A model generated the notes under the pieces. That model worked only from the letters and a program-made list of their open reading frames with translations. It made no database searches and was not told the origin of the DNA. Positions 9,870 through 11,611 of a DNA stretch of 32,000 nt are shown piece by piece. This DNA is from Dickeya dadantii NCPPB 898 (lineage in GTDB: Bacteria > Pseudomonadota > Gammaproteobacteria > Enterobacterales > Enterobacteriaceae). The stretch is from positions 476,930 through 508,929 of the forward strand of contig NZ_CM001976.1 of NCBI RefSeq assembly GCF_000406145.1, written 5' to 3'. Numbering within the stretch: the first letter of the stretch is position 1; the number at the start of each line of letters is the position of its first letter. A program made the translations under genes and the position numbers.

Positions 9870-10961
9870 ATGAAACACGTGACCAATCCTGACCAGCTCA
9901 GTAAGTTGCTGATTGAAGGTTACAAGTCTATTGAACGTTGTGAGTTGCACATGGGCAGCCTCAATGTGCTGATTGGCGCGAATGGTGCAGGTAAATCGAA
10001 CTTTATCAGTTTTTTCCGTTTGATTGCGACGTTACTTGACCAGCGTTTGCAATCGCTAGTCAGTAAGGCTGGCGGGCCTGATGCCATGTTGCATTTCGGG
10101 CGTAAAAAGACGCCACATCTGAAAGGTGAACTTTATTTTGGCAATAACGGTTATAAGTTCGAACTTGAGCCAACCAATGACAACCGGATGATGTTTTCAC
10201 GTGAAGCTTTATGGTGGAACATGAGCGGTGATAAAGGTGTTGTTGCTGGTCATTTCGAGTCACGGGCAGAAGAACACAACACCGGTATTAAAAAGTACAC
10301 ATTGCCAATTATGCGGCGCTGGCGTGTCTACCACTTTCATGACACCAGCGAATCAGCCCGTGTAAAGCAGATCCACCGCATTAATGATAATGACTATTTA
10401 AGAGAGGACGGTGCGAATCTCGCGGCGTTCCTGTACCGGTTGCAAAAAAACCATGCTGCACACTATAAGCGAATCGTTAAAAGTATTCAGATGGTTGCAC
10501 CATTTTTTGGTGATTTCTACCTGCGACCCACGTCAGATAACCCTGATACTATTCAGCTTGAGTGGACAGAAAAAGAGCAGGACGTTCCGTTCAAAGCCAA
10601 TGAACTGTCGGACGGTAGTTTGCGTTTTATTCTCCTGGCAACGGTGTTATTGCAACCAGAAGAGTACAAACCGAGTGCGATCATCGTAGATGAACCAGAA
10701 CTGGGTTTACACCCATATGCGATTGCCGTGCTGGCAGGTTTAATTAAAAGCGCCAGTCACGAACATCAGCTCATTATCTCAACCCAGTCGGTAGAATTGG
10801 TAAATGAATTTGATGCGGAAGATCTGATTGTCGTTGATAAGAAAGGTGGCGCGTCAACATTCAAACGGCTTGAGTCTGGCTCATTGGAAGAGTGGTTGAG
10901 TGATTATAGTCTGGGTGAGCTGTGGACGAAAAATCTGTTGGGCGGGAGGCCACAACGATGA
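9870..10961 (+). CDS. ABC/SMC-like AAA ATPase (AAA_21-type)
   Basis: Walker A GANGAGKS (nt 9975-9998), signature-like LSDGSLRF, Walker B AIIVDEPELGLHP, IISTQS at the H-loop position. The N-terminal strand LLIEGYKSIERCEL precedes the P-loop, as in OLD/AriA/AbiLi-type ATPases. Confidence 0.85.
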   Translation: MKHVTNPDQLSKLLIEGYKSIERCELHMGSLNVLIGANGAGKSNFISFFRLIATLLDQRLQSLVSKAGGPDAMLHFGRKKTPHLKGELYFGNNGYKFELEPTNDNRMMFSREALWWNMSGDKGVVAGHFESRAEEHNTGIKKYTLPIMRRWRVYHFHDTSESARVKQIHRINDNDYLREDGANLAAFLYRLQKNHAAHYKRIVKSIQMVAPFFGDFYLRPTSDNPDTIQLEWTEKEQDVPFKANELSDGSLRFILLATVLLQPEEYKPSAIIVDEPELGLHPYAIAVLAGLIKSASHEHQLIISTQSVELVNEFDAEDLIVVDKKGGASTFKRLESGSLEEWLSDYSLGELWTKNLLGGRPQR

Positions 10962-11611
10962 TTCGGGTCAATATCTTTGTGGAAGAACAAACAGAAGAAA
11001 CCTTTGTCCGTGATGTTTTGGCGCCGGCCTTTGCGTATCAACAAATTTACTTTACGCCAATCCTTGCTCAAACCAGCCGGGGGTATAAAGGCGGTATAGT
11101 GAGTTATGGCAAGGTGAAACATCAGATAGAACGATTGTGTAAGCAAGATCCGCAGGCATGGGTGACAACCATGATAGATTACTACGGTTTACCGACGGAT
11201 TTTCCGGGGCTGGATGAGAATCCGGCTCAACATGCTGATATTTACGTCAGAATTGCTCGTCTGGAGCAGGCATTTAAACAAGATATCAATCTGCCTAATT
11301 TTCTCGCGAATTTTATCGTGCATGAATACGAGGCATTGCTGTTTTGCCAGCCTGAAAAGTTTATTGATTGGATCGATGACGAAACCCCGGTAAAAAAACT
11401 CCTGGCAATGAAAGCCGAGTTTCCTACGCCTGAACAGATCAATAACAGCCCGCAAACTGCGCCGTCTAAACGTATTCTGGCGACTATCCCTACATACAAA
11501 AAAACATTACATGGCCCGCTGATTGCGGCTGATATTGGGCTGGACAGCATGCGTCAGCAGTGTCCTCATTTTCACAGTTGGCTTCAGCGCATTGAAGCTT
11601 TGGCTGATTAA
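10958..11611 (+). CDS. DUF4276-like protein (putative Toprim-like partner of the ATPase)
   Basis: ATG 10958 overlaps the ATPase stop (ATGA) and is preceded by GGGAGG (10944-10949). I recognise the blocks MIRVNIFVEEQTEETFV, VTTMIDYYGLPTDFPG and VHEYEALLF as DUF4276 hallmarks. The family assignment is from memory and has not been searched. Confidence 0.7.
   Translation: MIRVNIFVEEQTEETFVRDVLAPAFAYQQIYFTPILAQTSRGYKGGIVSYGKVKHQIERLCKQDPQAWVTTMIDYYGLPTDFPGLDENPAQHADIYVRIARLEQAFKQDINLPNFLANFIVHEYEALLFCQPEKFIDWIDDETPVKKLLAMKAEFPTPEQINNSPQTAPSKRILATIPTYKKTLHGPLIAADIGLDSMRQQCPHFHSWLQRIEALAD

Follow-up and report, generated by a model that had tools for sequence, protein, structure and literature searches.

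A HEC-01 ATPase–DUF4276 pair of Dickeya dadantii, a candidate anti-phage module left behind by an Hma-like operon

Introduction

HEC-01 belongs to a set of nine 'Hma-embedded candidates' introduced by Payne et al. (2024 preprint, bioRxiv 10.1101/2024.01.29.577857); in HEC-01, an ATP-binding cassette (ABC) ATPase is encoded with a TOPRIM protein sharing the metal-binding site of OLD. A gene pair of this kind was analysed here in a 32 000-nucleotide stretch of the Dickeya dadantii NCPPB 898 genome (RefSeq assembly GCF_000406145.1, contig NZ_CM001976.1, positions 476 930 to 508 929), hereafter called the window. Coordinates given without a locus number are window positions. The features described here are on the + strand, apart from the low-GC islet described below, to which no strand is assigned. 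The genes for the ATPase (protein A) and for the DUF4276 protein (protein B) lie downstream of a small gene for a ribbon-helix-helix (RHH) protein. In a first-pass annotation made from the sequence, they had been read as a sensor ATPase and a Toprim-type nuclease forming a split-OLD-like candidate module.

Two papers, the Menshen study and that of Payne et al., independently assign HEC-01B/DUF4276 to Toprim, with a conserved metal site. In the Menshen study, DUF4276 and RloB were presented as new Toprim families, Mad4 was recognized as a DUF4276 homologue, and DxD was reported in that study's own DUF4276 domains. RloB has been linked to type I restriction–modification systems. In MADS, deletion of mad3 or mad4 impairs defence, and mad5 can be deleted only if mad2 or mad3 is deleted as well. 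MAD3 and MAD4 are accessory and not found in every MADS locus, yet each is required for defence where present. In Burkholderia OLD (BpOLD), two metals are held by E400, E404, D455, D457, T506 and E508, with K562 nearby.

Results

The pair belongs to the catalogued candidate HEC-01

Protein A (363 aa, 9870..10961), an ABC-type ATPase head without a coiled coil, was matched by the PADLOC-DB v2 model HEC-01A PDLC04175 at E=1.3e-157 (residues 8–361 on model positions 4–362 of 363) and by Pfam AAA_21 (E=6e-28) and AAA_15 (E=5e-16). Protein B (217 aa, 10958..11611) was matched over its full length by PADLOC HEC-01B PDLC04188 (E=3e-88) and end to end by Pfam DUF4276 (E=2e-61). By these profile matches the pair belongs to HEC-01, a candidate anti-phage system that is already catalogued, and is not new. 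Because both PADLOC matches cover the full length, the novelty implied in the first-pass annotation falls. Its statement that no ATPase–DUF4276 pair had been examined experimentally is likewise not supported, as HEC-01 has been assayed (one negative and one reported positive result) and Mad3/Mad4 is a genetically required relative. The rest of that annotation stood up better. The reading frames, the motifs, the GGGAGG and the ATGA overlap were all found where it had placed them when the sequence was re-read, and the ATPase and whole-model DUF4276 identities were borne out by Pfam.

A Shine–Dalgarno sequence, GGGAGG (10944–10949), precedes an ATGA in which the stop codon of A overlaps the start codon of B (10958–10961; feature 10944..10961). 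A stands directly upstream of B in all 99 related loci, drawn from many phyla, and the same 4-nt overlap is kept in 98 of them. On this sequence evidence A and B are translationally coupled, as had been proposed at first pass. Given the end-to-end DUF4276 match, the AAA_21 match, the adjacency in 99/99 loci and the overlap in 98/99, the arrangement is far beyond chance.

Protein B has a predicted Toprim-like fold and a conserved acidic site

B starts with MIRVNIFVEEQTEETFV, contains TTMIDYYGLPTDFPG and VHEYEALLF, and is 100% identical to a Dickeya dadantii protein. A longer frame started at GTG (10922, 229 aa) was rejected for the ATG at 10958, where conservation among homologues begins. The AlphaFold2 (AF2) model of B (pLDDT 89.7, pTM 0.87) comprises a beta-alpha-beta-alpha-beta core followed by a helical domain. 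Its elements are beta1 (residues 2–8), a helix (11–26), beta2 (30–36), a helix (50–63), beta3 (68–74), a helix (95–110) and a short beta4. With Foldseek, the top PDB match was the C-terminal Toprim-plus-helical region of Xanthomonas OLD (6njv; E=1.3e-3, probability 1.00, template modelling (TM) score 0.47–0.49, 235 columns), which is borderline but spans the full length of B; TsOLD stood lower in the same list. The best match among viral structures was an RloB-like protein (E=3.5e-3). When profiles of B were searched against PDB sequences, no OLD was found and matches were at chance level only (Lpg2149, E about 0.7; a Cas protein, E 1.4), so that the Toprim link rests on fold and motif evidence. 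In Pfam, DUF4276 was the only family reported for B at E up to 0.1, with no Toprim_Old domain, and no NCBIfam family was found for B.

Among 55 representatives with 37–59% identity, the residues E9, E13, D74, H122, E123, E125, P169, R172, K182, C202 and W208 of B are invariant. E9, which takes the place of the Toprim Glu closing beta1, did not vary among 35 close and 55 distant homologues. The candidate metal-site residues are E9 (10982–10984), E13 (10994–10996), D74 (11177–11179) and H122-E123-x-E125 (11321–11332). After beta3, D74 is invariant and Tyr76 (at least 90% conserved) stands two residues on, so that the motif reads D-[YF]-Y; this D-x-Y variant of the Toprim DxD is a trait of the whole HEC-01B family. 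These residues were mapped onto BpOLD by sequence position and predicted secondary structure. In this mapping the site of B would mirror that of BpOLD, with E9/E13 repeating the spacing of E400/E404 at the end of beta1 and D74 ending beta3 like D455, and E123-x-E125 would open the helical domain like T506-x-E508. The acidic first strand had been called Toprim-like at first pass, and this agrees with the OLD fold match (borderline as it is), with the spacing of E9, E13, D74, E123 and E125, and with the published assignments. Residue 10 (10985–10987) is Glu in D. dadantii (VEEQTEE) and Gly in all other homologues examined, including D. zeae (VEGQTEE).

Protein A is an ABC-type ATPase with a glutamine at the H-loop

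A keeps intact Walker A, signature and Walker B Asp-Glu motifs: GANGAGKS (9975–9998), the signature-like LSDGSLRF (10605–10628) and AIIVDEPELGLHP with the catalytic Glu (10677–10715). Its N- and C-terminal ATPase motifs match those of TsOLD and GajA. In IISTQS (10773–10790), Gln306 (10785–10787) occupies the position of the H-loop His. The Gln noticed at first pass is not peculiar to Dickeya, as it was found in 81/81 homologues and is a trait of the whole HEC-01A family; TsOLD has His. Loss of the H-loop His of ABC ATPases slows hydrolysis, and a natural Gln is known in the degenerate site of TAP1. From the Gln and this general knowledge of ABC proteins we infer that A may be a slow-turnover switch rather than a motor.

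The AF2 model of A (pLDDT 82) was closest in fold to the SMC head 4i99 (1.5e-15), to PtuA from Septu and retron complexes, and to RecN and Rad50. Since these matches are to ABC heads, A is modelled as a bare ABC head with beta-rich inserts, in agreement with Payne et al. Membership of A in the NCBIfam families MADS3, retron-Eco8 and PtuA was rejected, the scores being far under the cut-offs. A is 70–83% identical to homologues in Aeromonas, Methylobacter, Amphritea and Hydrogenophaga, and in 76 of 77 loci its conservation exceeds that of B (mean identity 65.8% versus 54.8%). In the A homologue of Pectobacterium brasiliense (P0188), about 25 residues are inserted between the N- and C-terminal ABC lobes (alignment A2, columns about 126–163). 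The insert region between the lobes thus tolerates variation and could be the sensing surface.

The Dickeya locus is the remnant of an Hma-like operon

In some relatives, among them Aeromonas plasmids, Edwardsiella and Oceanisphaera, genes for a SNF2 helicase and a methylase enclose the pair and one for a ResIII protein follows, in operons headed by a BrxR or an RHH protein. The host genes of these operons score best in PADLOC as DrmD (1e-199; HmaA 1e-48), MTase_III and REase_III, and the operons are therefore named Hma-like here. At the operon head, either a BrxR-type WYL regulator (L004:3117-4028, L037:5153-6064) or a small RHH protein (L017:3792-4022, L023:5846-6064) was seen, and the two regulators appear to be interchangeable. 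MANTIS (Gao_RL) was considered as the identity of the host operon, checked against its paper and found to be unrelated.

In the window, the RHH gene (9517..9699) encodes a CopG/Arc-like protein of 60 aa (Pfam RHH_1, E=4e-11; PHROG Arc-like repressor), which likely regulates transcription of the module. Its homologues include the RHH proteins at the head of the Hma-like operons of loci L017, L019, L023 and L033, and it is 54% identical to that of a Vibrio locus (L015), where the RHH stop codon overlaps the ATPase start. The 170-bp spacer between the Dickeya RHH and A genes (9700..9869) is the scar of a deleted SNF2 (DrmD/HmaA-like) helicase gene, as established by blastn, tblastx and shuffled sequences. 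By blastn, 9719–9794 matches helicase nt 50–126 (72.7% over 77 nt). By tblastx, 9790–9843 matches helicase nt 2773–2826 of 2856 and encodes RLATDTLLTPLFKIRWRL, compared with the helicase C-terminus RLATETRLKTLFTIRWQL. Neither score was reached in any of 300 shuffles. Remnants of both helicase gene ends thus lie in the spacer, and the locus is therefore a decayed Hma-like operon: from the complete series (RHH, SNF2 helicase, A, B, type-III-like methylase, Res), about 2.65 kb of the helicase gene and everything 3' of B are missing. No intact Hma-like operon (helicase, methylase, ATPase/Res) surrounds the pair, and no methylase or Res sequence was found 3' of B.

In D. zeae (locus L110) the scar is down to 70 bp (L110:3843-3912), with the C-terminal helicase remnant only. 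Between D. dadantii and D. zeae, the ratio of nonsynonymous to synonymous substitution (dN/dS), at dS 0.20–0.35, came to 0.03 (A), 0.12 (B) and 0.26 (RHH). The corresponding AsnC value was disregarded as invalid, since the compared sequences did not agree in length and frame. All three genes are under purifying selection and have been kept while the scar erodes.

Host operons have decayed repeatedly around the pair

DUF4276 relatives numbered 3664 at E up to 0.001 in a full scan of 50%-identity representatives. A pattern scan for HEC-01 with one genome per species gave at least 555 matches confirmed as relatives, from which 80 loci were kept (Proteobacteria, Cyanobacteria, Clostridia, Chloroflexia and others). 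About 13 of the 81 species loci hold an Hma-like operon, intact or fragmentary. In the other 68, a few of the immediate neighbours are PglX (4), PglZ (3), mad3/mad8 (4), PDC-S03 or enzymes of type IIG, and the majority are housekeeping genes with no relation to the pair. Within or beside methylation-based systems (Hma-like, BREX, MADS-type) stand roughly one quarter of the species loci. The enrichment of such pairs in defence islands, named at first pass as a check, is only partly borne out, by that quarter; in the window the neighbours are metabolic.

Fragments of helicase, methylase or Res genes flank an intact A–B pair in four other lineages (L054, L068, L080 and L082), where, judged from the sequence, the host operon has decayed independently around the surviving pair. 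Hma scars were also looked for beside the stand-alone pairs of Pectobacterium, Xenorhabdus, Photorhabdus and cyanobacteria, and none was found, so not all orphans come demonstrably from decayed operons. In Pectobacterium, the bare pair lies between bcp and an M48 peptidase gene.

These contexts bear on the possibility that HEC-01 is an accessory module that works only with the methylation-based system embedding it, either as an extra nuclease arm or by firing when the host system is blocked by anti-restriction proteins, as PARIS does. The orphan Dickeya pair would then have little or no present defence activity. Such a role would account for the recurrent embedding between Hma-like helicase and methylase genes, beside BREX PglX/PglZ and with mad genes. 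It would match MAD3 and MAD4, accessory yet needed where present, and it fits both the lack of protection by HEC-01 expressed alone (Payne et al.) and the demonstrable loss of the host operon in the window. On the other hand, about 65 of 81 related loci have no detectable host system or scars, the orphan pair has remained under strong purifying selection in two Dickeya species after the loss of the helicase, and one study reports protection by HEC-01 alone. We regard an obligatory accessory role as unlikely.

The pair is rare on plasmids and absent from phage records

The pair was found on 13 of 72 556 plasmid records. By tblastn it was absent from 50 697 phage records, no PHROG was found for B, and a single contig was found in IMG/VR; on these grounds, phage-borne cargo, as in PARIS, was rejected. 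With the islet DNA as query, neither 5426 E. coli genomes nor phage genomes gave a match, and the sole result was a short match to an Aeromonas plasmid.

The same counts argue against a selfish, toxin–antitoxin-like addiction module, which would be expected to thrive on plasmids and phages. In such a module, B would be a toxic nuclease checked by A, loss of the pair or of A would kill the cell, and phage defence would be incidental. The existence of strains with an empty site (see below) also shows the islet to be dispensable at the population level. Several observations do agree with addiction: in at least five lineages, independently of one another (the window, L054, L068, L080 and L082), the pair has outlived its operon, A is more constrained than B (dN/dS 0.03 versus 0.12; more conserved in 76/77 loci), the deletion of mad5 in MADS needs that of mad2 or mad3, which implies an ATPase-dependent toxic activity, and the Pfam name of AAA_21 refers to a putative AbiEii toxin. 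On balance, addiction as the main function seems very unlikely to us.

A further reading was also considered, in which HEC-01 would not be a stand-alone phage-defence system of the usual kind but a self-preserving guard that monitors its methylation-based host restriction operon and fires, or becomes toxic, when the operon is inhibited or lost. We hold it to be distinctly unlikely. If true, it would explain the repeated survival of orphans after decay of the host operon, as in Dickeya, and the ATPase, unusually conserved and with the Gln H-loop of a slow switch, would respond to a cellular or nucleic-acid cue that is itself conserved and not to a variable phage protein.

The islet occupies a small strain-variable hotspot

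RHH, A and B lie in a low-GC islet of 2352 bp (9301..11652), delimited by the GC profile and by alignment with other Dickeya loci: three from strains with an empty site (L100, L102 and L107) and two from strains carrying a gene for an HNH protein (L108 and L109). The GC content of the islet is about 45%, compared with about 58–62% in the flanks, and the islet looks foreign. It is inserted between the gene for a pyridoxal-phosphate (PLP)-dependent enzyme and an AsnC/Lrp regulator gene, and replaces the 43-bp hairpin/terminator segment that is all that separates these two genes at the empty site (L100:4505-4564). No direct repeats, integrase or tRNA were seen at the junctions near 9300 and 11652 by comparison with the empty-site strains. 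The HNH protein has 245 aa (L108:5024-5761 and L109:5023-5760) and matches PADLOC models of type IV methyl-directed restriction (7e-26). The site was thus found in three states (empty, RHH-A-B and HNH protein) among strains with an identical AsnC protein, and it is therefore a small strain-variable hotspot with alternative cargo. The HNH-cargo strains and the window islet (9300–9356) have about 55 nt in common where the insert starts on the left.

This patchy presence, at a hotspot with an empty allele, is hard to reconcile with a housekeeping or DNA-repair pair like RecF–RecR, unrelated to immunity. The low-GC, foreign-looking character of the islet and the embedding of relatives in restriction-type operons also stand against it. 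The idea was entertained since RecF/RecR too combine a Toprim protein with an ABC ATPase, A weakly matches RecF, RecN and Rad50 in its N-terminal part, and the neighbours in the window are metabolic. The NCBIfam RecF match covers the Walker A region only and scores 23.7 bits against a cut-off of 172. A repair function is scarcely credible on this evidence.

D. zeae holds the same islet as D. dadantii. Between the two species, synonymous divergence of the islet genes (0.20–0.35) is below that of the flanking PLP-enzyme gene (0.56), a hint that the islet was passed between species at a later time.

Upstream of the RHH gene, a putative promoter/operator (9440..9516) was read from the sequence, with TTTACA at 9460–9465 and the palindrome AATGATGCATTATT (inverted repeat I3) at 9470–9483; a consensus scan of the + strand gave no strong sigma-70 site. 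A terminator-like hairpin, GGCCGCAAAAGCGGCC, followed by a T-run, was found by consensus scan at 9422..9437 and probably shields the islet against transcription running on from the PLP-enzyme gene upstream. An Rfam match to isrD over this hairpin (24 bits against a gathering score of 37) was judged to be due to chance and to the terminator hairpin itself. As ABC–Toprim effectors accompany retrons, a retron or other non-coding RNA partner was weighed; it was rejected, Rfam giving no match above threshold.

Elsewhere in the window, two further AT-rich stretches (7800–8400 and 14400–15000; GC 0.40–0.43), beside LysR/PLP-enzyme and MFS/HD-domain genes, are probably intergenic regulatory regions. 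In the Vibrio locus (L015:1-8800; Vibrio sp. 10N.286.49.B1), RHH-A-B comes as the final cargo ahead of a tyrosine integrase, beside a Dus-family gene. The element also holds many small unannotated reading frames and a protein with P2_N and P2_C domains, and looks like an integrated mobile element or prophage carrying HEC-01.

Discussion

The profile matches, predicted folds and conserved residues reported above support the candidate split-OLD-like module proposed at first pass. The reading that we favour, and consider probable although far from certain, is that A and B form a candidate anti-phage system in which an ABC-type ATPase would partner a Toprim-like nuclease, as in OLD and PARIS. Also in its favour are the embedding of about a quarter of the species loci in Hma-like, BREX and MADS-type systems, the restriction-like alternative cargo of the hotspot, the helicase scars and decayed flanks, the low dN/dS of A and B, the H-loop Gln in 81/81 homologues and the requirement for mad3 and mad4 in MADS. 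The model proposed for it starts from what was observed (coupled genes, intact motifs, similar folds, selection, and an association with operons of restriction type) and extends, by conjecture, to the complex, its trigger, its substrate and the outcome. A promoter upstream of RHH would drive RHH-A-B, with RHH regulating its own synthesis. A would dimerize on ATP and hold B in a complex. An infection-associated cue would then shift the nucleotide state or the conformation of A. Because A is so conserved, this cue would probably be conserved too (a nucleic-acid structure or interference with restriction) and not a fast-evolving phage protein. The change in A would license the two-metal site of B to cut nucleic acid, either DNA, as OLD and GajA do, or tRNA, as AriB does, and this cutting would halt the invader or the infected cell.

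Several points weigh against this reading. When HEC-01 was expressed in E. coli by Payne et al., no protection was seen against a BASEL subset and classic coliphages. The positive report, from a later cold-seep metagenome study in which E. coli B carrying a HEC-01 representative was protected against one or more of T7, T5 and T4, counts for the reading, but its text gives no effect size for HEC-01 and no mutant controls. The complex, the nuclease activity and the trigger are proposed by analogy with OLD, Gabija, PARIS and MADS. The Toprim similarity of B is seen in the predicted fold only and is borderline (E=1.3e-3, TM below 0.5), and the DxD that should follow beta3 is not kept. In D. dadantii, Glu10, directly after the putative catalytic Glu9, may alter or weaken activity. 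Finally, the islet's neighbours in the window are metabolic and regulatory genes, with no defence genes among them, and most related loci lie in non-defence surroundings.

What is new here is modest: the pair originated as an embedded module, now orphaned in a hotspot of Dickeya, and the H-loop Gln and the D-x-Y variant run through the whole family. The link between the ABC ATPase and DUF4276/Toprim had been published, and PADLOC would label the pair HEC-01 automatically. HEC-01 is abundant, yet its function is unsettled, one phage assay being negative and another positive. The Dickeya locus amounts to a natural experiment, in which one hotspot holds the RHH-A-B islet, other cargo or nothing, and the pair has been kept under selection after deletion of its host operon. 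Because the hotspot varies between strains and selection has persisted after loss of the operon, it can be asked in the native host whether embedded modules act alone and what they sense.

Compared with described HEC-01 loci, the architecture is the same (ABC ATPase, then TOPRIM-like DUF4276), and close homologues are embedded between helicase and methylase genes. The Dickeya locus differs in that the host operon has decayed to RHH, the 170-bp helicase scar and the pair, in a metabolic neighbourhood, and in that the host operon of its close relatives scores best as DrmD, MTase_III and REase_III, with HmaA at 1e-48 only. Mad3/Mad4 of the Pseudomonas aeruginosa MADS likewise combine an AAA_21-type ATPase with a DUF4276/Toprim partner in a methylation-based system, and A matches PADLOC mad3 at 5e-28. 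Unlike in MADS, A scores 93.7 bits against an NCBIfam MADS3 cut-off of 420, B has no match to the mad4 model, and no other mad genes (the mandatory MAD6, MAD7 and MAD8) are nearby.

Among OLD proteins of classes 1 and 2 (P2 Old, TsOLD, BpOLD/XccOLD and GajA), the fold of B is closest to the C-terminal region of XccOLD, its acidic residues are spaced as in the two-metal site of BpOLD, and A shares with them an AAA_15/AAA_21-type ABC ATPase that carries Walker A, signature and Walker B motifs. In contrast to these proteins, the HEC-01 domains lie on two polypeptides, no Pfam Toprim_Old is found, D-x-Y replaces DxD, the H-loop residue is Gln where TsOLD has His, and there is no UvrD/GajB partner. 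The difference from Gabija is marked, as the Dickeya islet has no helicase gene and the GajA match of A is weak and partial (7e-15). RloA/RloB and AbiLi/AbiLii also join an AAA_21-type ATPase to a small Toprim-like partner; A matches AbiLi at 9e-21, and the best viral match of B is RloB-like. B is nevertheless a DUF4276 and not an RloB or DUF4435 protein, and matches the models of neither family.

PARIS (AriA/AriB; class 4 OLD-like) differs in its nuclease, since AriB belongs to DUF4435 and neither PADLOC nor Pfam gave B a match to AriB or DUF4435, while the AriA match of A is to a generic AAA_21-type model. PARIS is often borne by phages or satellites; HEC-01B is absent from 50 697 phage genomes. 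Burman et al. found that AriA's central-pore and radial-pore residues are poorly conserved and suggested that they evolved toward different viral triggers, whereas HEC-01A is highly conserved. The likeness lies in the division of labour between a separate ABC ATPase and a nuclease of Toprim type, and by analogy with PARIS the ATPase of HEC-01 would probably act as a scaffold that restrains, and then releases, the nuclease.

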